Shown here piece by piece: positions 25,965 through 42,835 of a stretch of 64,000 bases of DNA (positions within the stretch are counted from its first letter, which is position 1; each line of letters opens with the position of its first letter). The stretch lies in the NCBI RefSeq assembly GCF_024223415.1, contig NZ_CP100503.1. The stretch is one strand, 5' to 3'. The translations under genes and the position numbers were made by a program. The notes beneath the pieces were generated by a model. That model saw nothing but the letters and a program-made list of their open reading frames with translations, made no database searches and was not told the DNA's origin. The DNA comes from Escherichia coli. GTDB taxonomy: Bacteria; Pseudomonadota; Gammaproteobacteria; Enterobacterales; Enterobacteriaceae.

Positions 25965-25967
25965 ATC

Positions 25968-26333: not shown

Positions 26334-27386
26334 ATGTCTAATGTCCTGACCGTACACCAAAATTTGCCTGCATTACCGGTCGATGCAACGAGTGATGAGG
26401 TTCGCAAGAACCTGATGGACATGTTCAGGGATCGCCAGGCGTTTTCTGAGCATACCTGGAAAATGCTTCTGTCCGTTTGCCGGTCGTGGGCGGCATGGTG
26501 CAAGTTGAATAACCGGAAATGGTTTCCCGCAGAACCTGAAGATGTTCGCGATTATCTTCTATATCTTCAGGCGCGCGGTCTGGCAGTAAAAACTATCCAG
26601 CAACATTTGGGCCAGCTAAACATGCTTCATCGTCGGTCCGGGCTGCCACGACCAAGTGACAGCAATGCTGTTTCACTGGTTATGCGGCGGATCCGAAAAG
26701 AAAACGTTGATGCCGGTGAACGTGCAAAACAGGCTCTAGCGTTCGAACGCACTGATTTCGACCAGGTTCGTTCACTCATGGAAAATAGCGATCGCTGCCA
26801 GGATATACGTAATCTGGCATTTCTGGGGATTGCTTATAACACCCTGTTACGTATAGCCGAAATTGCCAGGATCAGGGTTAAAGATATCTCACGTACTGAC
26901 GGTGGGAGAATGTTAATCCATATTGGCAGAACGAAAACGCTGGTTAGCACCGCAGGTGTAGAGAAGGCACTTAGCCTGGGGGTAACTAAACTGGTTGAGC
27001 GATGGATTTCTGTCTCTGGTGTAGCTGATGATCCGAATAACTACCTGTTTTGCCGCGTCAGAAAAAATGGTGTTGCCGCGCCATCACCCACCAGCCAGCT
27101 ATCAACTCGCGCCCTGGAAGGGATTTTTGAAGCAACTCACCGATTGATTTACGGGGCTAAGGATGACTCTGGCCAGAGGTACCTGGCCTGGTCTGGACAC
27201 AGTGCCCGTGTCGGAGCCGCGCGAGATATGGCCCGCGCCGGAGTTTCAATACCGGAGATCATGCAAGCTGGTGGCTGGACCAACGTAAATATTGTCATGA
27301 ACTATATCCGTAACCTGGATAGTGAAACAGGGGCAATGGTGCGCCTGCTGGAAGTTGACATCCTCCCCCACCTTCGCACTTCGTGA
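26334..27386 (+). CDS. cre: Cre tyrosine recombinase with IS-altered C-terminus (350 aa vs 343 in P1)
   Basis: MSNVLTVHQNLPALPVDATSDEVRKNLMDMFRDRQAFSEHTWK... matches P1 Cre through ...MVRLLE; last residues VDILPHLRTS are encoded by the inserted IS end. Confidence 0.9.
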   Translation: MSNVLTVHQNLPALPVDATSDEVRKNLMDMFRDRQAFSEHTWKMLLSVCRSWAAWCKLNNRKWFPAEPEDVRDYLLYLQARGLAVKTIQQHLGQLNMLHRRSGLPRPSDSNAVSLVMRRIRKENVDAGERAKQALAFERTDFDQVRSLMENSDRCQDIRNLAFLGIAYNTLLRIAEIARIRVKDISRTDGGRMLIHIGRTKTLVSTAGVEKALSLGVTKLVERWISVSGVADDPNNYLFCRVRKNGVAAPSPTSQLSTRALEGIFEATHRLIYGAKDDSGQRYLAWSGHSARVGAARDMARAGVSIPEIMQAGGWTNVNIVMNYIRNLDSETGAMVRLLEVDILPHLRTS

Positions 27387-27405
27387 CTCAGGAGGGGGAT
27401 TCCCA

Positions 27406-28638
27406 TTAGTGGGTGACGGCTGATTGCTCAGCGTCTGGTTCCTGCTTCAACGGGCGGTCTGACTGCACCGTCCCTCCACAGGCAAGTACGGCGTGCCCCG
27501 CCGCTAAAATGTTGCGAGCGCCGTTTACATCGGCGTTCGCTGTATATCCACAAGCCCGACACACGAATTTACTTTGTGTCAGGCGGTTTTCTTTCGCTGT
27601 ATGACCACAGCACGCGCAACGCTGGCTTGTGTACGCTGGCGGAACAGCAAGCACCTGACCACCACGCCAGAGCTGCTTGTACTCAAGCTGGCGGCGCATT
27701 TCATACCAGCCCTGATCCAGTATCGAACGGTTTAAACCTGATTTTGCCCGGACATTGCGCCCCGGCTGGCTGACCGTACCCGCTGCTGACTTTGACATGT
27801 TGCTGACCTTCAAATCCTCAATGACTATCATTGCGTGGTTTTTGCTGACGGTCGTTGTGACTTTGTGAAGGTAGTCCCTGCGGATATTTGCAATACGGGA
27901 ATGCAGTTGCTGTATTTTGCGTTTCTGCTTCTGCCAGTTGTTGCTGAATTTGACCCTGCGGCTTAACTGTCGCTGAAGTCTCGCCAGCTTCTTCTGGTTT
28001 TTCTGAAAACTGTTTACAGGTTCAAAGACTGTGCCATCTGACAGCGTGGCGAGTTTAGCCACGCCAGCATCCAGACCGACTATCGTTGTGCTTGTGTGAT
28101 TTGGTTCTGCCGTTTCAATTTCAACCTGAAACGAGATATACCACTGTCCCGCTAACTGACTGATTGTCGCATTTTTGATTTTACCGTTCACACGTTGAGA
28201 TTGCCGGAATTTTACCCACCCAAGACCTGACGGTAGCTTCACTCTGCGATTTTCAAGGCAGCAATATTTCTCAAAGTTCACAAAACGGATTGAGTCTCTG
28301 CCCTCATTTTTTCGTTTCCATACCGGAGCCTTAGCTGCGAGCTTTTTATCAAAACAACGTTTCCATGCGGTATGCAGGTCTTTCAGCTTTTGTTGCAGAT
28401 TGTCGGTATAAGCATCCTGTAAGAAGATATATTCCGGCATTTTTTTCCACACTGTAATCATCCGGTTCAACTCGAAAGCCGAAGGTAACTTTTCGCCTGA
28501 GCCAAGTACGCGCTTTGTCTCCGCAAGACCTAAATTCCAGACAAAACGGGCGCAACCACATAACTGCCGCAAACGCTGCGACTGTTCATGCGTTGGTTCC
28601 AGTCTGAATTTGTAGGCTTTCAGGATTAGCATCATCAT
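27406..28638 (-). CDS. tnpB: TnpB (RuvC-like, RNA-guided nuclease family) of IS-A (410 aa)
   Basis: RuvC motifs ([29 protein letters not shown]) and CxxC...CxxC zinc finger; C-terminal half near-identical to the IS-B TnpB. Confidence 0.85.
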
Positions 28639-28690
28639 TCAGTGTGTAGTAGATTTTCTTGCAATATTACTGTTTTTACGGCCAACCTCA

Positions 28691-29095
28691 ATGCAAAAAT
28701 ACAAAATCAATCGTTCAAGACATGCTGCCTTCCTTTTGCATGTTCATCTTGTCTTTGTAACAAAATACCGTCGAAAGATACTGGGAGAGTTACACTGTGC
28801 AGCATTCCATCAGTATGCAGCAGAAGTCTGCCGTGACTTTGGGGCAGAACTTAAAGAAAGTAACGGAGATGTCGATCATGTCCACATGCTGATCGAATAC
28901 CCACCAACAGTGCAGCTTTCGGTACTGGTTAACTCACTGAAAGCAGTGACATCCCGCCGTCTGCGAAACGAATTTCTTGATTTGCGGGGGGCATACGGAA
29001 AAGCCGTGCTCTGGTCGAGGTCATACTTTGCTGGCTCCTGCGGAGGTGCGCCGCTGGAAGTTGTGAAGCAATATATTCAACATCAGCGAGGCTGA
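28691..29095 (+). CDS. tnpA: TnpA Y1 (HUH) transposase of IS-A (134 aa)
   Basis: HVHLVF (HUH) motif and IS200-like size. Confidence 0.8.
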   Translation: MQKYKINRSRHAAFLLHVHLVFVTKYRRKILGELHCAAFHQYAAEVCRDFGAELKESNGDVDHVHMLIEYPPTVQLSVLVNSLKAVTSRRLRNEFLDLRGAYGKAVLWSRSYFAGSCGGAPLEVVKQYIQHQRG

Positions 29096-29200
29096 GCACC
29101 CTTCGGGCTTTTCAAGCCCGTCCAAATTCCCCTGCCGCCTTATGTCGGCGGGAGTACCCTTTGGAAGTTAAGATGGCGATTAGCCATTAACGCGTAAATG

Positions 29201-29217
29201 ATTGCTCTAATTCTTTG
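29201..29217 (+). promoter_or_regulatory. C1-operator-like motif ATTGCTCTAATTCTTTG
   Basis: Partial consensus match upstream of 29234 ORF; similar site at about 29677-29693. Confidence 0.4.
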
Positions 29218-29233
29218 ATATTTATGGTGACAT

Positions 29234-29545
29234 ATGAGAAAGGATTTCAACATCGACGGAAAATATGTAGTGCTGTCTGTAAGCACTAATATTCAGTCGC
29301 CAGCCGTCATTGTCACTGTAAAGCTGAGCGATAGAATACCTGATATTGACTCAATATCCGTTGCGTTCCCTGTCAAAAGTATTCGTAGTGCTGAACATTT
29401 CGTGATGAATGCCACCGAGGAAGAAGCACGGCGCGGTTTTGCTAAAGTGATGTCTGAGTTTGGCGAACTCTTGGGTAAGGTTAACAATGTCCTTTCAATC
29501 AGTTCAGCAAGGTCCAAAGCGTTAACAGCTTCCATGATGAAATAA
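29234..29545 (+). CDS. Hypothetical protein (103 aa)
   Basis: ORF with upstream operator-like motif; no motif recognised. Confidence 0.35.
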   Translation: MRKDFNIDGKYVVLSVSTNIQSPAVIVTVKLSDRIPDIDSISVAFPVKSIRSAEHFVMNATEEEARRGFAKVMSEFGELLGKVNNVLSISSARSKALTASMMK

Positions 29546-29569
29546 AAAAAGCCTGGCAAGGAGCCAGGC
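29544..29569 (-). terminator. Rho-independent terminator candidate for ant paralog ii (A-run, GCCTGGC-loop-GCCAGGC on plus)
   Basis: 7-bp stem; T-run follows on minus strand. Confidence 0.5.
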
Positions 29570-29759
29570 TGCACAAAAGAGCGGGTTTGTATTCCGCATC
29601 CAATCAATCAAGAAGGAGTATAGCACACAGGTACTGAAGTGAAAAAATGTGATTCGCGATTAACAAAATATCTACCATTGCTCTAATTGATTGATATAAT
29701 TAAGCCGCAGTTTTTGTCAACTACGAAGACATTGCCATTATAGACTCCGTGACATCATT

Positions 29760-29783
29760 GGCGGCCGAAAGGCCGCCTTTTTT
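29760..29783 (+). terminator. Rho-independent terminator candidate (GGCGGCC-GAAA-GGCCGCC-T6)
   Basis: GC-rich 7-bp stem, tetraloop, T6. Confidence 0.55.
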
Positions 29784-29785
29784 AA

Positions 29786-30850
29786 TCATTCAGCCGCCAC
29801 AGGTTTTAACAAGCCAGCATCGAGCAGTTTACGCGTCAACCACTGCTGGCCTTTCCCCGTTAATTGGGGCGTCAGCCGTATCTGGTAGCCCTCTTCATCA
29901 TCCAGCACCACTTCTTTCACTGTGAAATATCCGGCGTTTATGTACTGCTGGAACGGTACATTTTTACGTCCACCGGACGCTATCAGGATGCCGTTCTCCC
30001 GTAACCAGGCAAACAGCGCGTTTTGCTTAAGTCCAACAACCTTTGCAAAATTCCCAATCAGGATTCCATTAGCCACTGATACCCGGTCGGCAAAATCGAC
30101 TTTAGGAGCGGCGGCCACCAGCTGCTGATTTAGCTGGTGGGCTTTCTGTTCCAGAAGTTGCTTTTGTTCAGCCAACTCGGCAGCCAGGCGGAGGGCTTCG
30201 GGGAGTGTCTGGGGGATCGCTGGAGAAGCAGCGCTAACCTGCTGCAACTCCTCCAGCTTGTCGATCAACGAACGGCGGACCGCTTTTGACTCGCGCGCGG
30301 CAACTCGCAGGGCTTGTTTGTAGGTCATGGTTATGACCTCAAAAGAGCGCCCAGCCCTTGTGCCATGGGATTTTACGAAAGTTTCGTAAAATTCCCCATC
30401 AAGTTCATCCTTAATTCTATTGAGAAAATCGTTATTGCGGATCTCATTTTCCCCACATAGCTTGCGCGCCTCATTGACCATCTTTAACAGTGTCTGGCTG
30501 TCGATTGTGTCGCCCGTACTGGGGATAACATCCATGGCTGGTAGTGGTGTGGATTCTATCAAAGGCTTTGTAACGACAACATCTGGTTTGCTTGCTTTCA
30601 TTCTGTGTGCCTCCTTGCGTGCTTCGGCGGTTACGGTTGCATAATCAAGACGACCCTGTTCGAGCAGGTATTCACGGATATCAGTTAGCAGAATGCGGTG
30701 AACCGCGTTCTTGTCCTTTCTCCGGTAAAGTTGTTTGGTGATCATGAAGTAGTTGGCTATAACACCAGGAATGTCCCTGGCGCTGATACAGATTGTGTGC
30801 TGTTCAATAGCCTCGATCATTTCTTCACGGGTAACTAATGACGTTCTCAT
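29786..30850 (-). CDS. ant: Antirepressor Ant-like protein, paralog ii (354 aa; Rha-like central domain)
   Basis: Shares N- and C-terminal domains with paralogs i and iii; different central domain; coupled to icd. Confidence 0.65.
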   Translation of the reverse strand: MRTSLVTREEMIEAIEQHTICISARDIPGVIANYFMITKQLYRRKDKNAVHRILLTDIREYLLEQGRLDYATVTAEARKEAHRMKASKPDVVVTKPLIESTPLPAMDVIPSTGDTIDSQTLLKMVNEARKLCGENEIRNNDFLNRIKDELDGEFYETFVKSHGTRAGRSFEVITMTYKQALRVAARESKAVRRSLIDKLEELQQVSAASPAIPQTLPEALRLAAELAEQKQLLEQKAHQLNQQLVAAAPKVDFADRVSVANGILIGNFAKVVGLKQNALFAWLRENGILIASGGRKNVPFQQYINAGYFTVKEVVLDDEEGYQIRLTPQLTGKGQQWLTRKLLDAGLLKPVAAE

Positions 30851-31068
30851 AGCCCCTCCTGAGCAGAAGCGTTAACAGGGAGGCACCAGTAACTGAGAGA
30901 GTTGCGCGAGTCAGTAGAAAAGCGTGCAGAGAAAATGCAGGGAGCGTCAGGAAGCTGAGAACGGGCCTCATCTTCTGTTGGTGCAATGACGAAGTGATAG
31001 TGACGTTTTTGACAAGAATAGAAGCGCCAGATAAATTCCGGGCGTGCGCAAGGATTGGCATTAACCAT
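30847..31068 (-). CDS. icd: Icd-like protein (73 aa), module ii
   Basis: MVNANPCARPEFIWRFYSCQKRHYHF...; ATGA overlap with ant. Confidence 0.6.
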   Translation of the reverse strand: MVNANPCARPEFIWRFYSCQKRHYHFVIAPTEDEARSQLPDAPCIFSARFSTDSRNSLSYWCLPVNASAQEGL

Positions 31069-31118
31069 AGTTACGGCCTCACAAGTTGAATTAACAACCT
31101 GCTACCCGCTGTCAAACA

Positions 31119-31195
31119 GGTGGCAGGACGTGACAGGGTTGACAGACTGGCACTTGTGAAACCAGCAGGCCGAAGCCTCCCCATCACGCCCCACC
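31119..31195 (-). ncRNA. c4: c4-like antisense repressor RNA, module ii (about 77 nt)
   Basis: Same scaffold as module iii but a'/b' are CTGTCAA/CACAAGT, with matching targets TTGACAG/ACTTGTG. Confidence 0.6.
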
Positions 31196-31385
31196 ATAAT
31201 TCGGGCGTAACGCGGTTTTACGGACACAAAAATACCGCAATAACGGAGTGATGCGGTTGTCCGCACAAGTATTCAGGCTGTCAAACCCGGTCGCAGAATT
31301 TGCTACGACGCAGGAACTATAAGCCTGAACGACGGGAAGATCAATAGTCTGGCGTCCAATAGTAGTTTATTTGTTCCAATAAATC

Positions 31386-31402
31386 AAATTTATTAGAGCA
31401 AT
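31386..31402 (-). promoter_or_regulatory. C1 operator, exact consensus on minus strand (ATTGCTCTAATAAATTT)
   Basis: Exact 17-bp match; precedes c4/icd/ant module ii. Confidence 0.6.
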
Positions 31403-31633
31403 ACAATCTGGTTGAATGTTTCCTCTCCGAGGTTGCAATGTGCACACTTATTGTTTTATTTGTATGCACTAATAAATATATTATTTTTAATAATAAATAA
31501 TTGACAACTGACAAGTGACTTCAGTCAGAATCATCACACGCCCGGTACGGATGGATCCCTTTTCAAATATTCCATGGACGGCACAGTCTGAGTACCGGGC
31601 GCTACCTTCAGTTGTATTGCTAAGCCGCCGCTG

Positions 31634-32302
31634 GTGGCTTTTCTTTTTTGTAGGGGCGCTATGGATAAGAAAATATGCGTTGTTTCAATGTGCGTCGGCA
31701 AACCGGCGTCAATGACTGCTGCATGGATCAACAATGAGCTGATCATGGCTGAGCGGACCAGCTACCCTGAACGCCGCCGCGATATGGAACTCCAGCTGCT
31801 GCGCGAATTGCGAGAAAAAGAGGAAAAGGGTTTTATCGTGCTGGTGGAAGAGGAAAACAGCTTTATTACCGGTCGAGTTGGCCAGCGTGTAAGGTTGCGT
31901 GATCCCTTCATGAACGGCAGACCGGTACTGATTGAAGCAATGCAGATTTACAAGGAATTGGAACGCCAGAAAGCGATCAAGTTACCGCGCAAGGAATCCG
32001 GCAAATACATCCTTCACCAAAGCATCTTCGATTCCGAACACGATAAAAAAGGCGATGAATTTTTCAACATCAACTGGAGCGAAATAACGACAGAGCACGT
32101 TCTGACGTTGTTATGCTGCTTCGCAACGGAATATAACAACGTTGCAAGCGCCGACTACATCAGGGCAATGGCTGGAGAAGTTGAGGCACGCCAGGAACCA
32201 TCGTTACTAAGCCCTCTGATTAACATAATTCGCGGCACACAGAGACTTGCGGAAAAAAGCGTTCCACACGGAATCTTAACTGGGAAGGGAAACTATTTTT
32301 AA
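31634..32302 (+). CDS. Hypothetical protein (222 aa; likely start at internal Met MDKKIC...)
   Basis: ORF in an AT-rich island between two inverted immunity modules; no motif recognised. Confidence 0.4.
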   Translation: MAFLFCRGAMDKKICVVSMCVGKPASMTAAWINNELIMAERTSYPERRRDMELQLLRELREKEEKGFIVLVEEENSFITGRVGQRVRLRDPFMNGRPVLIEAMQIYKELERQKAIKLPRKESGKYILHQSIFDSEHDKKGDEFFNINWSEITTEHVLTLLCCFATEYNNVASADYIRAMAGEVEARQEPSLLSPLINIIRGTQRLAEKSVPHGILTGKGNYF

Positions 32303-32335
32303 CATCCCCAAATCCTTTTGGGGAACAACTCATTC

Positions 32336-32653
32336 TTACAATAGCTGCCCCATACATTGTCTCCAGGCACTCCCCTCATTACCGTTATCAAGAAACGTAG
32401 AGGTTGCATAAGGAATGCCTCTGATTTGTGTTGATGTGAATGGACCATCAGACGTCGAAGTTGTGCGCAGTTTTGATGTAAACTCGTAATTTCCACTGAT
32501 GCCTTTCTCTGCCAGAGCTTTTGATTTTGTGATAACTAAATCTGCACATTTCTCTGCGGCTACATATTGCGGGTCTTTTTCAGCTTTTCCGGCACATGCA
32601 GTTATCGTTAAAACGATAGCTGCGGCTAACAAATTACCTAGTTTCATCTGCAT
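32336..32653 (-). CDS. Putative lipoprotein (105 aa)
   Basis: Signal peptide with lipobox LTITAC; convergent with 31634..32302. Confidence 0.5.
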   Translation of the reverse strand: MQMKLGNLLAAAIVLTITACAGKAEKDPQYVAAEKCADLVITKSKALAEKGISGNYEFTSKLRTTSTSDGPFTSTQIRGIPYATSTFLDNGNEGSAWRQCMGQLL

Positions 32654-32752
32654 ACCTTATTAAGTGCATTAAAAACAGTAGGTTGCCAAGGTTTTAAACA
32701 AATTTCAATCCTCCATGACGCTCAATATGAGCAAAAATAACACACAAACATC

Positions 32753-32769
32753 ATTGCTCTAATAAATTT
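32753..32769 (+). promoter_or_regulatory. C1 operator, exact consensus ATTGCTCTAATAAATTT
   Basis: Exact 17-bp match upstream of c4/icd/ant module iii. Confidence 0.6.
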
Positions 32770-32959
32770 GATTTTTTAGGGCAAATAAACTACCATTGCG
32801 CACTGCCCTATTGATCTCCTTACCGTTCAGGCTTATATTCATGCCGTCGTAGCAAATTCTGCGACCGGGTTTAGCAGCCTGAATACTTACGCGGACAACC
32901 GCAGATATCCGATATTGCGGTATTTTCATGTCCGTATAACCGCGTTACGCCCGAATTAT

Positions 32960-33036
32960 GGTGGGGCGTGATGGGGAGGCTTCGGCCTGCTGGTTTCGTA
33001 AGTGCCAGTCTGCTAACCCCGTCACGTCCTGCCACC
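32960..33036 (+). ncRNA. c4: c4-like antisense repressor RNA, module iii (about 77 nt)
   Basis: Carries CGTAAGT (32997) and CTGCTAA (33010) complementary to ACTTACG (32885, 33069) and TTAGCAG (32871, 33039); the last overlaps the icd SD. Confidence 0.6.
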
Positions 33037-33086
33037 TGTTTAGCAGCGGGTCGCAGGTTGTTTTATCAACTTACGAGGCCGTAACT

Positions 33087-33308
33087 ATGGTTAATGCCAA
33101 TCCTTGCGCACGCCCTGAATTTATCTGGCGCTTTTACTCCTGCCAAAAACGTCACTATCACTTCGTTATTGCACCAACAGAAGATGAGGCCCGCTCTCAG
33201 CTTCCTGACGCCCCATGTATTTTCTCTGCCCGCTTTTCCACTGATTCGCGCAACTCTCTCAGTTACTGGTGCCTCCCTGTTAACGCTTCTGCTCAGGAGG
33301 GACTATGA
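33087..33308 (+). CDS. icd: Icd-like protein (73 aa), module iii
   Basis: 73 codons; stop overlaps ant start. Confidence 0.6.
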   Translation: MVNANPCARPEFIWRFYSCQKRHYHFVIAPTEDEARSQLPDAPCIFSARFSTDSRNSLSYWCLPVNASAQEGL

Positions 33309-34417
33309 GAACATCGTTAGTTACCCGTGAAGAGATGATCGAGGCAATTGAACAGCACACTGCCTGTATCAGTACCAGGGATATACCGGGCGTTATTGCC
33401 AACTACTTCATGATCACCAAACAACTTTACCGGAGAAAGGACAAAAACGCGGTTCACCGCATTCTGCTAACCGATATCCGTGAATACCTGCTCGAACAGG
33501 GTCATCTGAATTACGCAACCGTCGCAGCCGAAGCACGCAAGGAGGCACACAGAATGAAAGCAACTAACGTTAAATCAGAAAAAATTTATGCACCTTCAGT
33601 TCAGGAATCGGAACTGGTGGTTGTTCAGAATCAGCCGGATGAAATTCCCGTTCTGGAATGGCAGGGAGTACGTGTCGTGACAACCGAAACTCTTGCTAGA
33701 GGGTATGGGACCGAAACTAATAACATCAAAGTTAACTATACGCGTAATGCTGATCGCTTTGAGGAAGGTAAACATTACTTTCTACTAACTGGTTCAAAAT
33801 TAAAAGAATTGAAGGACAAGGTTACTCAAAGTAACTTAGTCGCACCGCGAGCAAAGCACCTCACTCTCTGGACGGAACGCGGCGCAGCCCGCCACGCTAA
33901 AATGCTCGAAACCGATCAGGCATGGGCATTCTTTGAAAAACTGGAAGACAGCTACTTCCGACAAAAAGAACAGCAACCGATCGCAATCCCCCAGACGCTT
34001 CCTGAAGCTCTGCGCCTGGCTGCCGAACTGGCTGAACAAAAGCAACTTCTGGAACAGAAAGCCCACCAGCTAAATCAGCAGCTGGTGGCCGCAGCCCCTA
34101 AAGTCGAGTTTGCCGACCGGGTATCAGTGGCCAAGGGGATCCTGATTGGGAATTTTGCAAAGGTTGTTGGACTTAAGCAAAACGCGCTGTTTGCCTGGTT
34201 ACGGGAGAACGGCATCCTGATAGCGTCCGGTGGACGTAAAAATGTGCCGTTCCAGCAATACATCAACGCCGGGTATTTCACGGTGAAAGAAGTGGTGCTG
34301 GATGATGAAGATGGCTACCAGATACGGTTGACGCCCCAGCTAACTGGGAAAGGCCAGCAGTGGTTGACGCGTAAACTGCTCGATGCTGGCTTGTTAAAAC
34401 CGGTGGCGGCTGAATAA
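33305..34417 (+). CDS. ant: Antirepressor Ant-like protein, paralog iii (370 aa; AntA/Bro-N-like central domain)
   Basis: Near-identical N/C-terminal domains to paralog i; central domain diverged. Confidence 0.65.
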   Translation: MRTSLVTREEMIEAIEQHTACISTRDIPGVIANYFMITKQLYRRKDKNAVHRILLTDIREYLLEQGHLNYATVAAEARKEAHRMKATNVKSEKIYAPSVQESELVVVQNQPDEIPVLEWQGVRVVTTETLARGYGTETNNIKVNYTRNADRFEEGKHYFLLTGSKLKELKDKVTQSNLVAPRAKHLTLWTERGAARHAKMLETDQAWAFFEKLEDSYFRQKEQQPIAIPQTLPEALRLAAELAEQKQLLEQKAHQLNQQLVAAAPKVEFADRVSVAKGILIGNFAKVVGLKQNALFAWLRENGILIASGGRKNVPFQQYINAGYFTVKEVVLDDEDGYQIRLTPQLTGKGQQWLTRKLLDAGLLKPVAAE

Positions 34418-34459
34418 TGGAAGAATGCCCGGTTGATGCCGGGCAAAAGGGCGGAAAGT

Positions 34460-34708: not shown

Positions 34709-35145
34709 GTTTTCTCTCCAGCCTGTGCCAAGGCTTCAACTTCCAAATCGTAAGACTCAAACTCATAGTCCTGGTCGTCAACTTCTTCAGGCACTGGCAG
34801 TAAGTGCCAGGCTGAGTATATCTGACCATTATCAAAACGCTCCTGGCTGTAGAGCGTCGCGGCTATGAGTGTTAGCGCCGGGCGGTCATAACGGTAAATT
34901 TTGCGAACGTCACGGTCAACGAGACGACCGAAATTACCATAACCGCGCTCCAGTAATAATTTTTTAATTTCCGGCCAGTATGGACCATAGCTGCGGTACA
35001 GGCGGTGATTTTTCAGTAATCGCCCGCGTAGCCCTGACAGGAAGAAATCAACGTATTCGTCTTCTGTCTTTCCTAACAACGCTGTACGGAGTACCGCCTC
35101 AAGATATGTTTTATTCGGTTTTATTGTATCAGATAGTGTGGCCAT
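34705..35145 (-). CDS. Hypothetical protein (146 aa), ulx-position
   Basis: ORF between darB-like gene and 82-aa gene. Confidence 0.4.
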   Translation of the reverse strand: MATLSDTIKPNKTYLEAVLRTALLGKTEDEYVDFFLSGLRGRLLKNHRLYRSYGPYWPEIKKLLLERGYGNFGRLVDRDVRKIYRYDRPALTLIAATLYSQERFDNGQIYSAWHLLPVPEEVDDQDYEFESYDLEVEALAQAGEKT

Positions 35146-35178
35146 ATTATGCGACGCCCGGCGAACCGGGCGCTCCTG

Positions 35179-38100
35179 TTATGCGTATTGTTGGATGACG
35201 GCCAGAACGTCCGCCACGTTGTGTTTTGTCTCGATAATCCACCAGTTACCCGGGAAATCGCTGTTCTTCGCCTTCGCTGGCAGCCAGCGAGCGCCGAATT
35301 TCGCCTTGATTGCGTCTTTCGCACGGAAAAGAACCCCTTTCATGCCTGAGGCTTCCTGAAGCCCAAATACCTCGCCAGCGGCGAATTTTGGTGCGTACAT
35401 CATCTTCAGGTCGGCGGTGGATACGCGATAATTCAGGCCAAGAGACTGAGCTATGCTGGTGGCATCACCCTGTATTGATGATAACTCTTCTTGTTTCTCG
35501 TTTCTGGCGGCAATCTCTTCCTCCGTGATGTTGCCAAGGGCCAGGTTTATCCGATCAGCGTCGGCCTGTTTCTCTTCATCGGTGCGCCCGGCAAGAACCG
35601 TGTTAATTCTCTGCAATATCTCCACATGATTCTTGCGCATGCTGAGCAATTCCGGCGTAACCTCGTTAAGATCCACCAGCCCAAGGATGGCAAGGTCGGA
35701 AAACATTGATACCAGGTTGTAGGTCATGCGATAGCTGAGTTGACCATAGGCTGATGGCAACTTCACCGCATCCATTTGATAGGCATCCATAAATTTAGAG
35801 CCGTCGTTTACGACATCCGCTATTGCAGGTGTGATTTTCCCTGTGGTGGCGGCCTCCCTGATTGCTGTTACCCACGATTGAGTCAGCGCGGCGACTGCAT
35901 GATTCAGATTGGCTTTCCGTTCTGCTGCGATGCGCGCGCTTGCTGCGTCCATTGCCTGCTTGATCTCGGCTTTATTGCTGTAAATGCCAATGGTGCCAAA
36001 CTGTGCTGTGGTGATCTCATAATCTGACGCCCGGAACTCATTGGTACCGAAAATGGCATTGGTGACTTCAAGTTCAGAATCCCCGTTACGAGTAGCCCCC
36101 TGGCTTGTTTTTTCCGGCATTCTGGCGATCGCATCCGCTATTTTCTCCTGAATTGCTTCAGGGGATAGCGTATCTCCGTATGACGCGATTACATCGCCAT
36201 AATTGGAGCCAAACAATTCAACCAGGAATGTTTCTGCCGAACGGATCTGGCGGTTATTCCCTTCCGACATCATACCAAGCACCCATTTTGCAATTGACGA
36301 CTTCAGCGCGCCGTCACGGCGATCCGGGTAAACCGCATGCTTCAGTGGGTCCGTATAGGTACCAACAAAATCAATGCTATAGCCTGACTCTGTAGTCTGA
36401 ACGCCGTATGAGTCAGTGATTTTGATCATGCCGCGCTGCTGGAAACGGTAGAAATCGTCACAGGAAATGATGTCGTTAATCCCGGCGATGGAGACGCCAC
36501 CACTGATTTTCTGCATAACAGCATCTTCATCGGGAGTTACATCCACCTGTTTATCCAGCGTCTTCACATCCCAGTTACCCGATTTGGTGCCTTTGAAGGT
36601 AAAGATGATCTCCACGTCTGCGCGCTGGCTGTCGAAGTCCAGCGACTTAATGCGAACGATATCACCGGCACAATCGTAGTATTGGCCTACACGCCATGAG
36701 CGATCGCCGATAACAAGGAACTCACTCGCATGGTTAACCAGGTCAGGATCAACATCCAGAATGCCTTTATTTATTGCATCCTCCACCAGCGGGCGCAGGC
36801 GTTTGATATCCGTCGCGGCCTTCTGAGTACGGTTCAATAATTTCTCATAGCGGGAGATGGCTTGAGAGATATTAGCCTTGCGCTGAATGGCGTTTTTCAA
36901 CGACGCGCGATACTGTGCTAACAACATACGGTCTGTGTGATGGACGCTCCCCCAGCGGGCCTTCCAGTCTGCGTTATCAGCTGCTTTGGCCATTACCGCC
37001 TGTTTGAATTTAGCTACCTCGGCGGTGGTCTTTTCAAGTTCCGCTTTGCTTCGCTCTAATTCAGCGGTAAGTACCTCCACATCCTCGCCAGCTGCGTGCT
37101 GCGCCTTGATGTAGTTCTGAAGGTCGATAGTAGCCTGTTCTTTCTGGCGAGCGCGTTGCGCGGCTTTCGCCTTATCCATTTGAACCTGCATCATTGCCAG
37201 ACGTTCGCCATCATCCTTAGCGGTATACATCTGCATTTCGATCATATCGTTGGCGTCGGCGTTCTCCATTTCAGACTTATCTGAGCGGAGGATATCGGAG
37301 ATCCAGCCTGCTTTACGCTTCAGCGTCTTCAGTCGGTATTCATCGAAAGAACCCTTGCCGCAGTAGTAGTGAACGCGAACGCTTGCACGGTTGGAACCAA
37401 CTCGGGCACCGCGACCGTTACGCTGTGCGATACTGGCTGGTGTCCATGGCAACGTCAGATGATGGATGTCAGTCGTTCCTCGATGCAGGTTGATACCCAC
37501 CTCTGCCTTTTTGTTGCAGATGATGATCGGAGTCCGGCCCTCCTGGAAGTCGGCAGCAATCTTTTCCAGCCCACCCAGCGACATTTCATTTTGCTGCGCG
37601 ATATAGGCGTCATACAGAGCCATTTGCTCGTTGTATTTCGCTATCTGTGCATCTGTTGGTTCATCCGGTAGCTCTTTCGGCGGTTTAACCGCTTTCAGTT
37701 TCTTACCGGTTTTACCTGCCTCGGCAACCGTCTGAGCATTCAGGATCCCCACCTTTGAAGGTTCAAGGTTAAGAGCATTGCAGATAATGCGCTTGAGCTT
37801 CTGGTGTTGCGTTTTTTCATCGGTGAAGATGATTTGCTTACCTTCCGGGAAAAACTCCTTCAGCGTGGCGATCAGCTTCGCGTATTTCGGCGTAACGGGG
37901 TGAGTTACGGTCTGTTCGTCAATGCCAAACCTGGCCAGGCGCTTATTCACTTCCTGCTCGAACGCTTCCGGAACCTGCAACTGAATAAACTCGCCCTTAT
38001 CTATCAGGGAGTATTGCGATTGCTGCGTGATCGAATCATCACTGTCGTCGTCTTCGCTGGTGGCTTGTTTAGGCAAACTGTCCGCCAGCTGCTGCACCGC

Positions 38101-40068
38101 ATCGGCGTACTCCGGCAGGAAACGATAGGTGATCCTGCGATAGTACAGGTCCATGTCAGTACATACGCGGTCCATATCCCTGATTATTGAGAAGATCGGA
38201 CGGGCTTTCTCGTGCTCAATCACGCCGTCTTCATTGACCGAGGTCGTTACGCCATTGTTGGCTTTGGCTGCCGCTTCCGCCTGCTGACGCAATTCTTCAT
38301 ACGCCGCCAGTTGTTCTTCCGTAAGTGGTGCATCCTGCTGGTGTTCGTCCAGTTCCGGGATCTCCACGGTATCCTTAACGTCTTCCGCCGTTTTAAGCGT
38401 TGTCCAGCGATGGAATATGCCGCGCAGCGCATCAAGGTTTTCAAAGCCCACCAGCGCCATTTTTTCTTCAACTTCACCGCTAATTTTCTGTACCGTTTCC
38501 AGCCTGGTCTTGCCGAAGAATTTAACGAAGTCATCAGGACCGTAGATCCCCATCTTCTGCCAGTATTCCTTCGGCAGCACATGAGAAAGCATGTTGTATG
38601 CATCGATCGGGGTGTTAACGACTGGCGTTGCAGTCAGGAGAACCGGTCCGCGCCCACCATTCTTTTTCATCAGGTACGCGTTTTTAATTGCCATATCCCG
38701 CGCCGATTGCGCCACCGCGCTGGTGGGCAGATAGGCCAGTTGTGACGCTTCGCGACCATTTTTATAGCTATTGCGGTAGTTGTGACCTTCGTCAGCGATC
38801 ACACTATCGAAGCCCATATCCTCAAAGTACGGATACTTCTCTGCTTTTTCGGTGCCGGTATCTGAATACTCCGACAATACCCGGCGACGCGCGGCCTCTT
38901 TGCGGTGGGAGTCGGAGTCCATTGCGCTGGCTACGCGCCCGGCGGCAACGAAGTCATAAAGCATATCCTGTGCATGCTCATCTACGGTGTCATCACGTAG
39001 CGGAATGCGGGCGTATTGTTCTTTGGTAAACACGACTGCACGGTAATTTGAGTGCGGGATCGCGTTCATCCGCGCCGTGATAGTGGCTTCATCTGCCAGC
39101 TTAAGAGCATCGCGCATAACTGGAGTGCCATCAGTACCAAGAACAGGTTTACCGTTCTCATTGAGCACCGGCACCTGGCGAATCTGATCGCCATCCATCA
39201 GCACATCAAGACCGACGAACAGGTAGTTACTGAATGCCTCTTCACTCAGGAACTCTTTTGCTTCGTAATACCAGTTTTCCAGCACTGATTTAGGCACTAC
39301 ATACGCAGTACGGGTGGAACGACCGTTCTCATAGTTGAACGCCTCAAGCGCCAGCGCGGTCGTGGTTTTACCCAGCCCGGTACCGAAGCCCAGGATGCCG
39401 CGCCCATCTTCGGACAGTCGGCGCACCTCGCTATTCTGGTAATCAAATGGCTGTCGCTTACCGCTTAATCCCTTCAACCCAAGCGGATCGCCAGAGTGTT
39501 CATACGGGATATTGCTATTGAACACATCGTTGTATTTGGCAACCAGCTCATCGTAGCGATCGTGCGTCTTGATCCACTTATTGAACTGGTCCTCAAGCAG
39601 TGCCATCTGCTCGCGGTAGCCGTTCGCCGTCGCGCTATCTTTGCCACCGATACGCGCACCATTGAGATACTTTTCCAGCTGTGCCGGGAACCCGGTCGCG
39701 TTTTCACCTGATTTACGGTCCCACTCGTAGCGGATCTCGCCTGTTTCTTTATCCTTGCGCTGGACGACACCGTATCGGTGCCCGACGAACAGACCATCAC
39801 CACCGTGATAGGTGTCAGAAACCATTTCGTCGCCTTCCAGCTGCACTGACTGCACATAGCGAAGATCCGGATAGCCGTTTTCCTGCAAAAATTCCAGAAT
39901 GACGGAACGGTCGAACCAACGGCTATTGAGCTTAAAGCGGATATTCTCTGCTGGCGTCTTGATGCGCTTCTCTTCGATCGCTGCCAGCTGATTAAGGACG
40001 TTGTTCTTTACCCAGTGCGCCGTAAAGCCCCGTCCTTCAGGTCGGGGATATAAGGCGCGGTTTTCCAC
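35179..40068 (-). CDS. DarB-like SF2 helicase-domain protein, 5'-truncated by IS-B (1629 aa; first 19 codons IS-derived)
   Basis: Walker A GFGTGLGKTT and DExH VIADEGHNY; the ORF start lies inside the IS left end (40012-40068), and no methyltransferase-like N-terminal domain (expected from P1 DarB as I recall) is present. Confidence 0.55.
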   Translation of the reverse strand: MENRALYPRPEGRGFTAHWVKNNVLNQLAAIEEKRIKTPAENIRFKLNSRWFDRSVILEFLQENGYPDLRYVQSVQLEGDEMVSDTYHGGDGLFVGHRYGVVQRKDKETGEIRYEWDRKSGENATGFPAQLEKYLNGARIGGKDSATANGYREQMALLEDQFNKWIKTHDRYDELVAKYNDVFNSNIPYEHSGDPLGLKGLSGKRQPFDYQNSEVRRLSEDGRGILGFGTGLGKTTTALALEAFNYENGRSTRTAYVVPKSVLENWYYEAKEFLSEEAFSNYLFVGLDVLMDGDQIRQVPVLNENGKPVLGTDGTPVMRDALKLADEATITARMNAIPHSNYRAVVFTKEQYARIPLRDDTVDEHAQDMLYDFVAAGRVASAMDSDSHRKEAARRRVLSEYSDTGTEKAEKYPYFEDMGFDSVIADEGHNYRNSYKNGREASQLAYLPTSAVAQSARDMAIKNAYLMKKNGGRGPVLLTATPVVNTPIDAYNMLSHVLPKEYWQKMGIYGPDDFVKFFGKTRLETVQKISGEVEEKMALVGFENLDALRGIFHRWTTLKTAEDVKDTVEIPELDEHQQDAPLTEEQLAAYEELRQQAEAAAKANNGVTTSVNEDGVIEHEKARPIFSIIRDMDRVCTDMDLYYRRITYRFLPEYADAVQQLADSLPKQATSEDDDSDDSITQQSQYSLIDKGEFIQLQVPEAFEQEVNKRLARFGIDEQTVTHPVTPKYAKLIATLKEFFPEGKQIIFTDEKTQHQKLKRIICNALNLEPSKVGILNAQTVAEAGKTGKKLKAVKPPKELPDEPTDAQIAKYNEQMALYDAYIAQQNEMSLGGLEKIAADFQEGRTPIIICNKKAEVGINLHRGTTDIHHLTLPWTPASIAQRNGRGARVGSNRASVRVHYYCGKGSFDEYRLKTLKRKAGWISDILRSDKSEMENADANDMIEMQMYTAKDDGERLAMMQVQMDKAKAAQRARQKEQATIDLQNYIKAQHAAGEDVEVLTAELERSKAELEKTTAEVAKFKQAVMAKAADNADWKARWGSVHHTDRMLLAQYRASLKNAIQRKANISQAISRYEKLLNRTQKAATDIKRLRPLVEDAINKGILDVDPDLVNHASEFLVIGDRSWRVGQYYDCAGDIVRIKSLDFDSQRADVEIIFTFKGTKSGNWDVKTLDKQVDVTPDEDAVMQKISGGVSIAGINDIISCDDFYRFQQRGMIKITDSYGVQTTESGYSIDFVGTYTDPLKHAVYPDRRDGALKSSIAKWVLGMMSEGNNRQIRSAETFLVELFGSNYGDVIASYGDTLSPEAIQEKIADAIARMPEKTSQGATRNGDSELEVTNAIFGTNEFRASDYEITTAQFGTIGIYSNKAEIKQAMDAASARIAAERKANLNHAVAALTQSWVTAIREAATTGKITPAIADVVNDGSKFMDAYQMDAVKLPSAYGQLSYRMTYNLVSMFSDLAILGLVDLNEVTPELLSMRKNHVEILQRINTVLAGRTDEEKQADADRINLALGNITEEEIAARNEKQEELSSIQGDATSIAQSLGLNYRVSTADLKMMYAPKFAAGEVFGLQEASGMKGVLFRAKDAIKAKFGARWLPAKAKNSDFPGNWWIIETKHNVADVLAVIQQYA

Positions 40069-40605
40069 CTAACCAGGTGTTTGCTGTTGTTCAATGTATT
40101 GGCGGATGATGGATATTGGTGCGCCACCGCAGCTACTGGCAAAATAGCTGGGACTCCATAAAACGCCTTTGTAGTAATATCGGGCTGCAATATCTGGTCG
40201 ATCTCGTCGCAATAATCTACTCGATACGCCCTTGAGACTGTTCACCAGGCTGGATATCGCCAATTTGGGGGGATAGTTAATTAGCAGGTGAACGTGATCT
40301 CGTTCTCCATCCATTTCAACCAGTTCAGCTTCAAAATCAGCACATACACTTGAAAAGTAAGTGCGTAGTTTTTCTATTGCGTCATGGTCAAAAATCTGAC
40401 GTCGGTATTTTGCGACAAAGACCAGGTGAACGTGCATCAGGAAGACGCAGTGTCTTCCACGTCGGATATCAGTTTCTTTTTTTATGGACCAAAGTATAAT
40501 TTGGCTTATGAAACGACTACAAGCTTTCAAATTCCAGTTAAGACCAAATGGACAGCAGGAGCGTGAAATGAGGCGCTTCGCGGGCGCATGTCGTTTCGTT
40601 TTCAA
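40069..40605 (-). CDS. tnpA: TnpA Y1 (HUH) transposase of IS-B (N-terminus of track ORF probably over-extended)
   Basis: HVHLVF motif; homologous to IS-A TnpA. Confidence 0.75.
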   Translation of the reverse strand: MKTKRHAPAKRLISRSCCPFGLNWNLKACSRFISQIILWSIKKETDIRRGRHCVFLMHVHLVFVAKYRRQIFDHDAIEKLRTYFSSVCADFEAELVEMDGERDHVHLLINYPPKLAISSLVNSLKGVSSRLLRRDRPDIAARYYYKGVLWSPSYFASSCGGAPISIIRQYIEQQQTPG

Positions 40606-41716
40606 TCGTGCTCTGGCGCTTCAGAATGAGAATCATGAGGCCGGGAACAAATATATTTCTTATGCAAAGATGACTTCCTGGCTGGTTGAATGGAAAAATG
40701 CTACTGAAACGCAATGGCTTAAAGATTCTCCCTCACAGCCATTGCAGCAGTCACTGAAAGACCTTGAGCGAGCCTACAAAAATTTCTTTCAGAAGCGTGC
40801 CTCTTTTCCCCGCTTCAAAAAGCGGGGACAGAATGATGCATTCCGCTATCCGCAGGGCGTTAAGCTCGACCAAGGGAACGGTCGTATTTTTCTGCCAAAA
40901 CTTGGCTGGATGCACTACCGGAACAGCCGTCAGGTCTCGGGGATTGTGAAAAACGTCACTGTCAGCCAGTCCTGCGGTAAGTGGTACATCAGTATTCAGA
41001 CAGAAAGTGAAGTATCAACTCCGGTTCACCCTTCAGCATCAATAGTCGGTCTGGATGCAGGCGTGGCTAAACTCGCCACGCTGTCAGATGGCACAGTCTT
41101 TGAGCCTGTAAACAGTTTTCAGAAAAACCAGAAGACGCTGGCGAGACTTCAGCGACAGTTAAGCCGCAAGGTCAAATTCAGCAACAACTGGCAGAAGCAG
41201 AAATGCAAAATACAGCGACTGCATTCCCGTATCGCAAATATCCGCAGGGACTACCTTCACAAAGTCACAACGACCGTCAGCAAAAACCACGCCATGATAG
41301 TCATTGAGGATTTGAAGGTCAGTAACATGTCAAAGTCAGCAGCGGGTACGGTCAGCCAGCCGGGGCGCAATGTCCGGGCAAAATCAGGTTTAAACCGTTC
41401 GATACTGGATCAGGGCTGGTATGAAATGCGCCGTCAGCTTGAGTACAAGCAGCTCTGGCGAGGCGGTCAGGTGCTTGCGGTTCCGCCAGCGTACACAAGC
41501 CAGCGTTGCGCGTGCTGTGGTCATACAGCGAAAGAAAACCGCCTGTCACAAAGTCAATTCAGATGCCAGGTATGTGGATATACAGCGAACGCCGATGTAA
41601 ACGGCGCTCGTAACATTTTAGCGGCGGGGCACGCCGTTCTTGCCTGTGGAGGGATGGTGCAGTCAGGCCGCCCGTTGAAGCAGGAACCCACCGAAATGAT
41701 TCAGGCGACAGCCTGA
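40484..41716 (+). CDS. tnpB: TnpB of IS-B (410 aa)
   Basis: RuvC-like motifs and zinc finger. Confidence 0.85.
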
Positions 41717-41752
41717 ACGTAGCAGGAATCCACGTCCTTCAGGGCGTGGAGG

Positions 41753-42835
41753 ATGTCAATGGAGCCTCCCCTTCTCTGCCGACGTTCAGGGGGGTTTATG
41801 AAAACACCTCTCGTCACCCGTAATGACATAGCCGAAGCGATCGCCCTGCATACTGCCTGTATGCCGACACGGGAGATCCCCGGCGCAATTGCCAACTATT
41901 TCATGATAACCAGACGTTTTTATACCCGAACAGATAAGGCTGTGATCAACAAGCTACTGATAGCCGAGATCAGGGATTATTTGATTGAACAAGGACGTCT
42001 ACGTTACGCAACAGTGGCAGCAGAAATGAGAAAGGAGGCACATAGAATGACCGGTAATAATTTAAATGTTGAAAAACCAGCACCTGTTGCTTCAGCTACG
42101 CCAGCACCAGCCGTGAATATCATCCCCAACACCGGAGACACAATCGACAGCCTGACACTGTTAAAGATGGTCAATGAAGCGCGTAAGTTATGTGGGGAAC
42201 CAGAGGTTCGGAACAACAAATTCATCGAAAAAATACTCGATGAGCTTGATGGTGAGCACTACACAAAAAGTGTAGTGGAAAAAATGAACAAAACATCAAT
42301 GCTTGTCATAACCATGACTTTCAAACAAGCCCTGCGAGTCGCCGCGCGCGAGTCAAAAGCGGTCCGCCGTTCGCTGATCGACAAACTGGAAGAATTACAG
42401 CAGGCAAACTCACCTACCCCATCGATCCCCCAGACATTACCAGAAGCCCTACGCCTGGCTGCCGAGTTGGCAGAACAGAAAATGCAGCTGGAACAACAGC
42501 TGGTGGCCGCAGCCCCTAAAGTCGATTTTGCCGACCGGGTATCAGTGGCCAATGGAATCCTGATCGGGAACTTTGCAAAGGTCGTTGGACTTAAGCAAAA
42601 CGCCCTTTTCTCATGGTTGCGCCAGAACGGCATTCTCATGGCTTTTGGTGCGCGCAAAAACGTACCGCGCCAACAGTACATCAACGCCGGGTATTTCACG
42701 GTGAAAGAAGTGGTGCTGGATGATGAAAATGGCTACCAGATACGGCTGACGCCCCAATTAACGGGTAAAGGCCAGCAGTGGTTAACTCGCAAGCTACTTG
42801 ATGCTGGTTTGTTAAAACCAGTAGCAATAGGTTAA
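41753..42835 (+). CDS. ant: Antirepressor Ant-like protein, paralog iv (likely start MKTPLVTRN near 41798); upstream icd reduced to its last 14 codons by IS-B
   Basis: Rha-like central domain similar to paralog ii; the sequence right after the IS end is homologous to the icd 3' end. Confidence 0.6.
   Translation: MSMEPPLLCRRSGGFMKTPLVTRNDIAEAIALHTACMPTREIPGAIANYFMITRRFYTRTDKAVINKLLIAEIRDYLIEQGRLRYATVAAEMRKEAHRMTGNNLNVEKPAPVASATPAPAVNIIPNTGDTIDSLTLLKMVNEARKLCGEPEVRNNKFIEKILDELDGEHYTKSVVEKMNKTSMLVITMTFKQALRVAARESKAVRRSLIDKLEELQQANSPTPSIPQTLPEALRLAAELAEQKMQLEQQLVAAAPKVDFADRVSVANGILIGNFAKVVGLKQNALFSWLRQNGILMAFGARKNVPRQQYINAGYFTVKEVVLDDENGYQIRLTPQLTGKGQQWLTRKLLDAGLLKPVAIG

Follow-up and report, generated by a model that had tools for sequence, protein, structure and literature searches.

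Two kinds of IS200/IS605 element with mosaic tnpB genes and predicted omega-RNA scaffolds in a P1-like phage-plasmid of Escherichia coli

A 64,000-nucleotide stretch of Escherichia coli contig NZ_CP100503.1 (assembly GCF_024223415.1), which we will term the window, belongs to a P1-like phage-plasmid and carries three insertion sequence (IS) copies of two kinds: one copy of an element that we term IS-A and two copies of an IS609-like element that we term IS-B (Table 1). We are fairly confident that these are two already catalogued kinds of IS605-group element, with intact tnpA and tnpB genes and an omega-RNA-type scaffold at the right end; that they act by a mechanism like that of ISDra2 and the Geobacillus elements; that their tnpB genes became a mosaic by gene conversion; and that one IS-B copy is linked to a large deletion in the replicon. 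Here we establish the anatomy and homology of the elements, the covariation of their right ends, their target sites, the boundaries of the mosaic, and the junction of the deletion.

Long stretches of the window are 96–99% identical to phage P1 (NC_005856), including cre, c8, mat, lxc, ulx, darB, ant, kilA, repL, the par region, dmt, and pacAB. The closest complete relative that we found is the E. coli plasmid pMTY1886_untypable_1 (NZ_CP128972.1, 97.4 kb; hereafter pMTY1886), which is collinear with the window at 96–99% identity but in which cre, darB, icd, and dmt are free of these insertions. P1 and pMTY1886 thus show the empty sites.

Both kinds of element belong to known families. Their transposases, TnpA-A and TnpA-B, share 53% identity. 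Each scores above the cut-off of NF033573, the IS200 transposase equivalog, and each has the HUH and C-terminal tyrosine motifs of a Y1 transposase (in TnpA-A these are visible as HVH motifs and a C-terminal YIQHQ). In place of terminal inverted repeats, the elements have subterminal imperfect palindromes at both ends, left (LE) and right (RE), as seen in folds of the single-stranded DNA. Also, they are inserted 3′ of a specific tetranucleotide, which is CCAT for IS-A and TTAC at three IS-B sites, and the target is not duplicated.

All three TnpB proteins retain the acidic residues of the RuvC domain and the zinc finger, as a preliminary description of this DNA had stated. In TnpB-A, the triad is D190/E274/D370 and the zinc finger is Cys341/344/360/363; in TnpB-B (both copies), these are D191/E275/D371 and Cys342/345/361/364. 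The triads align with D191/E278/D361 of ISDra2 TnpB (PMC10097598). The catalytic residues are conserved across the TnpB family, and the four cysteines are invariant in a family alignment of 25 TnpB sequences. Both TnpB-A and TnpB-B align end to end with ISDra2 TnpB (8H1J; E = 3.4e-43 and E = 4.4e-57, respectively). At five positions in the REC domain that are homologous to contacts of ISDra2 TnpB with its transposon-adjacent motif (TAM), TnpB-A and TnpB-B differ at four (positions read by hand; roles from PMC10097598), which fits their different targets, CCAT and TTAC. By homology, we would expect TnpA to excise and integrate single-stranded DNA and TnpB to cleave double-stranded DNA in a TAM- and guide-dependent manner.

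On its top strand, which is the minus strand of the window, IS-A is ordered LE, tnpA (antisense), tnpB, RE. Its limits are set by the empty sites in P1 and pMTY1886, where cre reads ...ATCGCCAT/CTTCCAGC... (the slash marks the insertion point), and by six further copies from unrelated contexts. The ends are identical among these seven copies in their different contexts, CCAT precedes LE in 7/7, and none has a target duplication. The insertion replaces the C-terminus of Cre (DGD) with VDILPHLRTS. Compared by listed features, IS-A matches the IS605c elements of the ISEc44/ISSen6/ISEc89 type, which have a length of 1813–1883 bp, a Y1 transposase of 134–146 aa, a TnpB of 402–410 aa, CCAT on the left, and TCAA on the right (PMC9956272; CCAT/TCAA for this size class are in the supplementary table). 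On these features we classify IS-A as an ISEc44/ISSen6-type element that targets CCAT. (For its left guide tetranucleotide, GGTA, GTAC, and TACT are each compatible with the fold.) IS-A is rarer than IS-B: at least 80% of a 2,001-nt IS-A query is covered in 87 E. coli genomes, and among the best-scoring copies listed, most are on plasmids. A full copy of IS-A, 97.3% identical, is also present in the record of the filamentous single-stranded DNA phage If1 (U02303.1, 5306–7137; GenBank and RefSeq), where it overlaps ORF348 and parts of what are annotated as the major and the minor intergenic regions. As the IS-A copy spans it, ORF348 is a tnpB.

IS-B is 93.7% identical at the DNA level to chromosomal copies whose tnpA is labelled as IS609 family by the annotation pipeline PGAP, and TnpB-B is about 95–96% identical to E. 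coli InsQ/TnpB clusters. IS-B also has the length (1748 bp), the organisation, and the right end of IS609 (insQ/tnpB). In ISfinder, elements count as isoforms from ~90% identity in DNA and ~95% in protein, and by comparison with the PGAP-labelled copies, IS-B reaches both values. However, IS609 is listed with the target TTAT (PMC9956272), whereas IS-B has TTAC at the darB, dmt, and icd sites. (The empty sites are ...TTCTTTAC/TGGACC in P1 darB and ...ACTTTTAC/AAGACT in dmt, and the P1 icd site is preceded by GTTAC.) Two chromosomal IS609 copies that we examined have a TTAT flank and AAAA 5′ of the LE hairpin, while IS-B in the window has TTAC and AAAG, so the left guide and the target changed together. 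We therefore regard IS-B as an IS609 isoform with altered target choice, and the change looks like a natural one-base retargeting that is consistent with the guide rule of IS608 (PMC3201880).

The two IS-B copies have 8 differences in 1709 nt. The predicted start codon of tnpA is ATG in copy 2 (62763–62765) and ATA in copy 1 (40483–40485, minus strand), so copy 1 may rely on TnpA supplied in trans. Of 5426 complete E. coli genomes, 4307 have a match to at least 80% of a 2,001-nt query for IS-B. A TnpB that is 81% identical to the enterobacterial IS-B protein is encoded on a 2,057-bp contig assigned to Streptomyces mutabilis (NZ_BMTT01000064.1), which is probably contamination of that assembly.

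In IS-A and IS-B alike, the terminal sequence is GGAGGATGTCAA. It ends at 27355 (minus strand) and 41759 (plus strand), which is 51 and 43 nt past the respective tnpB stop codons. To place this in context, we used 80 loci that encode TnpB relatives at 60–85% identity, nearly all from Proteobacteria, which were gathered as representatives at 50% identity and by a contig scan of genomes. (A plain search for homologous proteins was dropped as the source for covariation because it gave only E. coli proteins of ~95% identity.) In 73 of the 80 loci, the terminal 12-mer was found with no more than 3 mismatches and equally far from the zinc finger; most of the listed ones have it without a mismatch. 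It also contains the TnpA cleavage site TCAA. The likeness between the right ends of IS-A and IS-B consists of this 12-mer and a GGAATCC block only. Thus, the preliminary description was correct that a right-end sequence follows tnpB in both elements, but the 12-mer is a family-wide feature and not a specific link between IS-A and IS-B.

The same description had proposed that the right end is where a guide-RNA scaffold ends, and this agrees with what we found: the right end coincides with the 3′ boundary of a conserved, covarying scaffold of 120–130 nt that overlaps the 3′ end of tnpB. In an alignment of 67 sequences, a structure of 37 pairs is 94.2% paired, as compared to 41–48% if the partners are slid. 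Compensatory changes occur at 29 of the 37 pairs, the covariation score is 0.39 (versus 0.06–0.09 in controls), and 0 of 500 shuffles reach the observed values. Two helices at the 5′ side of the scaffold were missed by RNAalifold alone; these were placed by hand and then tested. The 3′ tail, which in ISDra2 pairs with a segment farther upstream to form a pseudoknot, is nearly invariant among the relatives. A covariance model built from 38 loci, with none from an enterobacterial genome and no sequence from the window, matches the right end of IS-B copy 1 with 120 bits (E = 1.1e-36, model positions 1–125 of 125), that of IS-A with 69.4 bits (E = 2e-20, full length), and that of IS-B copy 2 with 63.8 bits, its 3′ end being cut by the end of the window. 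The further matches in the window are weak and involve only the RE-hairpin part of the model, on both IS-B LE hairpins. In IS-B copy 1, the RE hairpin is CCACGUCC-UUCA-GGGCGUGG, followed by AGGAUGUCAA.

The guide of IS-A would come from the flanking 3′ end of cre and that of IS-B copy 1 from a flanking remnant of icd, again as first described. The predicted 16-nt guide of IS-A, CTTCCAGCAGGCGCAC, has perfect matches only in the intact cre of P1 and of pMTY1886, each with CCAT upstream. In the window, this sequence is preceded by GTCAA instead of CCAT, so the occupied site would be protected. In the icd gene of P1 and pMTY1886, TTAC is followed by TGGAACCTCCCCTTCT, which has one mismatch, at position 5, to the predicted guide of IS-B copy 1, TGGAGCCTCCCCTTCT. 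The right flank of IS-B copy 2 lies past the end of the window. The predicted targets are the intact 3′ end of cre for IS-A and the intact icd and dmt sites for IS-B.

These features suggest a cycle like that of ISDra2 and the Geobacillus elements. By homology with those elements, TnpA would excise the top strand and insert it 3′ of the tetranucleotide. The tnpB transcript would yield an omega-RNA, with the last ~120 nt as the scaffold and a 3′ extension into the flank as the ~16-nt guide. TnpB would cut the IS-free allele (TAM plus flank), and we propose that the element would therefore be restored by recombination. For the copies in the window, we infer RNA production, with a guide derived from the flank, as well as nuclease activity and the use of the TAM by TnpB.

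The closest parallel for the protein and RNA is the TnpB–omega-RNA complex of ISDra2 from Deinococcus radiodurans (PDB 8H1J, 8EXA, 8BF8). The homology is full-length and includes the D-E-D triad and the zinc-finger TNB domain, and in both cases the scaffold overlaps the 3′ end of tnpB and stops at the RE boundary. The 5′ edge of the scaffold in the window is at about −117, versus −116 for the processed end in ISDra2, and a tetraloop hairpin at about −30 to −11 is in the place of stem 4 of ISDra2. The TAM of ISDra2 is TTGAT, while those predicted from the LE flanks in the window are CCAT and TTAC. Unlike in ISDra2, tnpA in the window is divergent from tnpB, and TnpB has a 15-aa insertion before the third RuvC segment.

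For the DNA ends, the comparison is to IS608 of Helicobacter pylori, which is the paradigm for peel-and-paste transposition by TnpA. IS608 and IS-B both have the target TTAC and the left guide AAAG 5′ of the LE hairpin; in IS608 and in both elements of the window, GAAT lies on the 5′ side of the RE hairpin, and TCAA ends 10 nt from the hairpin's foot (PMC3201880). In contrast, tnpA and tnpB are co-directional in IS608 and divergent in the window, and IS-A targets CCAT. As for retention of the element, it has been shown experimentally that with TnpB or IscB of the ISGst elements of Geobacillus, the donor joint (TAM plus RE flank) is targeted by the element's own guide (Meers et al., bioRxiv 10.1101/2023.03.14.532601). 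The same logic would apply in the window, where the IS-free cre has an exact match to TAM and guide and icd has a match with one mismatch. Unlike for ISGst, a phage-plasmid carries the elements here, and they would be aimed at sites in the phage genes cre, icd, and dmt.

Several observations weigh against an active TnpB system here, and some of them favor the alternative that the tnpB genes and right ends are inert passengers, with no functional omega-RNA or nuclease activity in this host, whose reading frames are intact only because of recent insertion and which persist by TnpA transposition alone. A promoter scan found no sigma-70-like promoter inside tnpB on the sense strand. The predicted guide of IS-B copy 1 has a mismatch in its seed to the icd allele of P1 and pMTY1886. 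Neither the insertion junctions nor the inverted isomer (discussed below) was found in the complete E. coli genomes, PLSDB plasmids, and phage records that we searched, and as the junctions do not recur, there is no visible sign of spread by homing. With its ATA start codon, IS-B copy 1 may not translate TnpA. Also, TnpA requires the RE hairpin, GAAT, and TCAA at the DNA level, which would account for the covariation of that hairpin and the conservation of those motifs, so that only the upstream helices argue specifically for RNA. Finally, Rfam at its gathering thresholds gave no omega-RNA family in the window. A relaxed search gave only sub-threshold matches, on the sense strand at the 3′ end of tnpB: HgcC (RF00062, 24.1 bits versus a threshold of 50, E = 0.0015), sot0042 (RF02656, 18.7 bits versus 88, E = 0.011), and RAGATH-18 (RF03064, 28.1 bits versus 44.9, E = 0.003). 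All three families have a match in IS-B copy 1, and RAGATH-18 also has one in IS-A, at 27439–27482. We take these as a resemblance in motif and position. Nevertheless, HgcC and sot0042 have been tied to the 3′ ends of tnpB genes, and sense transcripts from the 3′ part of tnpB were reported for E. coli K-12 (PMC4615843). Related TnpB proteins are active (PMC10097598; bioRxiv 10.1101/2023.03.14.532601). Also, the catalytic residues and the covarying scaffold are both kept across Proteobacteria at 60–85% protein identity, which implies selection on both the protein and the RNA. So, we consider it unlikely that these genes are inert, and, judging by homology, we prefer the view that they work like the ISDra2-, IS608-, and ISGst-type systems.

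IS-A and IS-B differ over most of their length but share one block. Across LE, tnpA, and the 5′ half of tnpB, they are 28–59% identical (the N-terminal 184 aa of TnpB are roughly 37% identical, as counted by hand from the alignment). At IS-B positions ~1031–1677 (window 41042–41688), they are 96–99% identical, and over the last ~70 nt, identity is ~49% apart from GGAATCC and the terminal 12-mer. The preliminary description had noted near-identical C-terminal halves of tnpB beside differing N-terminal halves and tnpA, and an inverted repeat of about 600 bp with arms about 13 kb apart. Both points hold: the arms are 652 nt long, 96% complementary, and 12,948 nt apart (arm 1 also pairs with 63317–63968). 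The check that it named, a nucleotide alignment of the tnpB genes, recovers the 652-bp block, but the block does not continue to the right end; it stops 72 nt before it.

We interpret the near-identity as a gene-conversion tract from IS609 into the IS-A lineage. This region encodes RuvC, TNB, and part of the scaffold and so is doubly constrained, which raises the question of whether purifying selection on overlapping protein and RNA codes, and not recombination, kept the two alike. However, third codon positions in the block are 93.5% identical, and the codon differences are split between 12 synonymous and 11 non-synonymous. A Salmonella variant with the same IS-A backbone is 76–77% identical to both IS-A and IS-B over the core of the tract (alignment columns 1200–1500), and relatives at 60–67% protein identity diverge ordinarily in the block. 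Furthermore, the boundaries are sharp, and small sub-tracts vary among IS-A copies (for example, at 41546–41572). The third positions, the Salmonella variant, and the sub-tracts favor repeated gene conversion over selection; selection as the cause is largely refuted, and we give it almost no credence. We also considered whether IS-A had converted IS-B copy 1 inside this replicon and rejected this, because the 8 differences between the IS-B copies are private substitutions and not IS-A alleles.

The block runs from TnpB residue ~185–187 to about −72 in the scaffold. In ISDra2 TnpB, WED comprises residues 1–12 and 117–176, REC comprises 13–116, and RuvC begins at residue 185; WED and REC read the TAM, RuvC binds the 5′ region of the scaffold, and WED binds stem 4 (PMC10097598). 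As RuvC of ISDra2 begins at residue 185, the left boundary is the boundary between WED and RuvC. The exchanged block thus appears to comprise RuvC, TNB, the C-terminal domain, and the 5′ part of the scaffold, while WED/REC, the RE hairpin, LE, and tnpA stay specific to each lineage. If the ISDra2 structure is a fair guide, then these parts would segregate along the map of contacts between protein, RNA, and DNA. Such a pattern of recombination between IS605-group families offers a natural template for TAM-swapped TnpB chimeras. A term search of the main text of PMC9956272 gave nothing on a mosaic relation of ISEc44-type elements to IS609.

A bolder view is that the mosaic is a natural domain swap, in which a common RuvC/zinc-finger core and 5′ scaffold were joined to two TAM-reading WED/REC modules and two stem-4/RE hairpins, and that the TnpB proteins could also be weapons for homing or exclusion between P1-like elements that compete in one cell. 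We offer this tentatively and think it fairly unlikely to be right: the part about homing and exclusion is based on the P1-type carriers and on guides that match cre, icd, and dmt of IS-free relatives, and we found nothing specific in the literature on TnpB homing or exclusion in phages. If it is true, then the TAM specificity of TnpB (CCAT versus TTAC) would be modularly exchangeable at residue ~185. By the reading that we prefer, two known kinds of element with a conversion tract, this is instructive but ordinary biology and leaves current understanding as it stands. Its practical use is limited: it defines exactly where two E. coli TnpB elements begin and end, which motifs they target, and which guides they are predicted to use. 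How the mosaic divides into modules, how an IS609 variant was retargeted, and the deletion add helpful detail but no new biology.

The two flanks of IS-B copy 1 map to distant sites, which the preliminary description had not noticed: P1 15301 (darB) and P1 48650 (icd), or 86121 and 20752 in pMTY1886 (reverse-complement coordinates). On the circular map of pMTY1886, the darB–icd junction is a simple deletion of 32,039 bp. On the darB side, window 34453–40011 aligns with P1 9743–15301, and darB of P1 is at 10469–17236. According to the P1 annotation, the corresponding interval of P1 includes the 5′ third of darB, prt, pro, lyz, ssb, ddrAB, darA, the lyd genes, cin, the tail-fibre and baseplate genes, sit, tub, sim, c4, and most of icd. 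IS-B copy 1 thus appears to mark the loss of 32 kb of morphogenetic genes that lay between a TTAC site in darB and one in icd. The deletion could have arisen from two IS-B insertions followed by homologous recombination, from an exchange that TnpA carried out between one IS end and another TTAC, or from repair after a break. By any of these routes, an IS609-associated deletion would turn a P1-like phage into a defective plasmid.

Three or more near-identical repeats of 1.7 kb are a classic cause of mis-joins, and this junction is known only from the assembled window and is shared by no other record that we searched. So, the darB–IS-B–icd junction might be an artefact in which 1.75-kb IS-B repeats were collapsed, with the morphogenetic genes really kept between separate copies in darB and icd. 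But the two visible IS-B copies differ at 8 positions and thus can be distinguished. Elsewhere, the window keeps the order of pMTY1886, as expected for a simple circular deletion, and each junction falls precisely on a TTAC site, which a real insertion needs. We judge an artefact to be improbable and treat the deletion as real. We give similarly little weight to the idea that the 652-bp inverted repeats drive a reversible inversion of the 12.9-kb segment with c8, the immI modules, mat, lxc, ulx, and darB, so that two isomers would exist and regulation would be affected. It is true that repeats of this length (652 bp) and identity (96%) amply suffice for RecA-dependent recombination and that at least one IS-associated rearrangement has occurred in this lineage. 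However, the segment between the arms (29170–40011) is collinear with P1 1454–15301 and with pMTY1886, so no inversion has been fixed here. There is no trace of exchange between IS-A and IS-B in the replicon, given that the differences between the IS-B copies are private. Also, inversion should yield LE-A/RE-B and LE-B/RE-A hybrids with mismatched TnpA hairpins, and there were none among the copies that we retrieved and aligned. The inverted repeat is a by-product of the conversion history and only a potential substrate for RecA-mediated inversion.

Table 1. Coordinates in the window of IS-A, the two IS-B copies, and associated features.
Feature	Position	Strand	Remarks
Predicted 16-nt guide of IS-A, CTTCCAGCAGGCGCAC	27339–27354	−	In the 3′ end of cre
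IS-A, complete IS200/IS605 (IS605-group) element	27355–29172	−	1818 bp, within the final codons of cre
Predicted omega-RNA scaffold / right end of IS-A	27355–27486	−	Includes the RE hairpin and terminal AGGATGTCAA
tnpB of IS-A, 410 aa	27406–28638	−	NCBIfam NF040570 (RNA-guided endonuclease TnpB), E = 8e-108
Inverted-repeat arm 1, in IS-A	27437–28088	−	RuvC/TNB/CTD (C-terminal domain) coding part and 5′ scaffold part
tnpA of IS-A, 134 aa, Y1 HUH transposase	28691–29095	+	NCBIfam NF033573, E = 7.7e-41
CCAT, left-flank target of IS-A, predicted TAM of TnpB-A	29173–29176	−	
darB remnant, 3′ 4.8 kb only	35179–40011	−	5′ third (N-terminal ~645 aa) lost at IS-B copy 1
TTAC, left-flank target of IS-B copy 1 in darB, predicted TAM of TnpB-B	40008–40011	+	
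IS-B copy 1, complete, IS609-like	40012–41759	+	1748 bp; left flank darB, right flank icd
tnpA of IS-B copy 1	40069–40485	−	NF033573, E = 4.6e-43
tnpB of IS-B copy 1, 410 aa	40484–41716	+	NF040570, E = 7.7e-117
Inverted-repeat arm 2, in IS-B copy 1	41037–41688	+	Shared block
Predicted omega-RNA scaffold / right end of IS-B copy 1	41639–41759	+	5′ of the icd flank
Predicted 16-nt guide of IS-B copy 1, TGGAGCCTCCCCTTCT	41760–41775	+	In what remains of icd; the P1 ant1 start is 38 nt downstream
IS-B copy 2, after TTAC in dmt	62292–64000	+	Window end falls ~39 nt before the right end
tnpA of IS-B copy 2	62349–62765	−	
tnpB of IS-B copy 2, 410 aa	62764–63996	+	
Predicted scaffold of IS-B copy 2	63919–64000		

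Other P1-like phage-plasmids (pVTB432v-3, RCS47, SJ46, vB_EcoM-813R1, and pMTY1886 at 96830–629) have either IS-A adjoining darA or, adjoining ddrA, a sequence that matches the IS-B query in its tnpB part only. From these records, P1-type elements seem to be recurrent targets of these IS families, at differing sites.

The rest of the replicon has several other features. A HigB/HigA-type toxin-antitoxin pair lies at 25662–26327, in the position of cra upstream of cre, and pMTY1886 has the same pair. Downstream of repL, in a stretch without a match to P1, the sok antitoxin RNA (Rfam, 91 bits) at 44984–45158 implies a putative hok/sok module. Homology to P1 is also absent from 10685–16897 and 53783–56033. 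The latter is in the place of repA/incA of P1, and its counterpart in pMTY1886 is annotated as a RepB-family initiator and a GIY-YIG nuclease.

There are three genes for C4 antisense RNA in the window (22329, plus strand; 31116, minus; 32954, plus) and four ant-like genes; these lie in the regions 22228–23815, 29786–31322 (minus strand), 32833–34417, and 41753–42835. Two immI modules form an 811-nt inverted repeat of 90% identity (30592–31402 and 32753–33563) around mat, where P1 has res/mod. In pMTY1886, three extra icd-ant gene pairs are annotated beyond the canonical one, at matching positions.

Finally, dmt (open reading frame 59631–62333) has, besides IS-B copy 2, an in-frame insertion of 1,020 bp at 59865–60884 that is not in the dmt of P1 or pMTY1886. 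It interrupts the C5-methyltransferase motif GGTP/CQAFS, begins with a cysteine, ends in VVHN/C, and matches the NCBIfam model intein_Cterm; by eye, it has motifs that look like LAGLIDADG. This insertion appears to be an intein at the catalytic cysteine.

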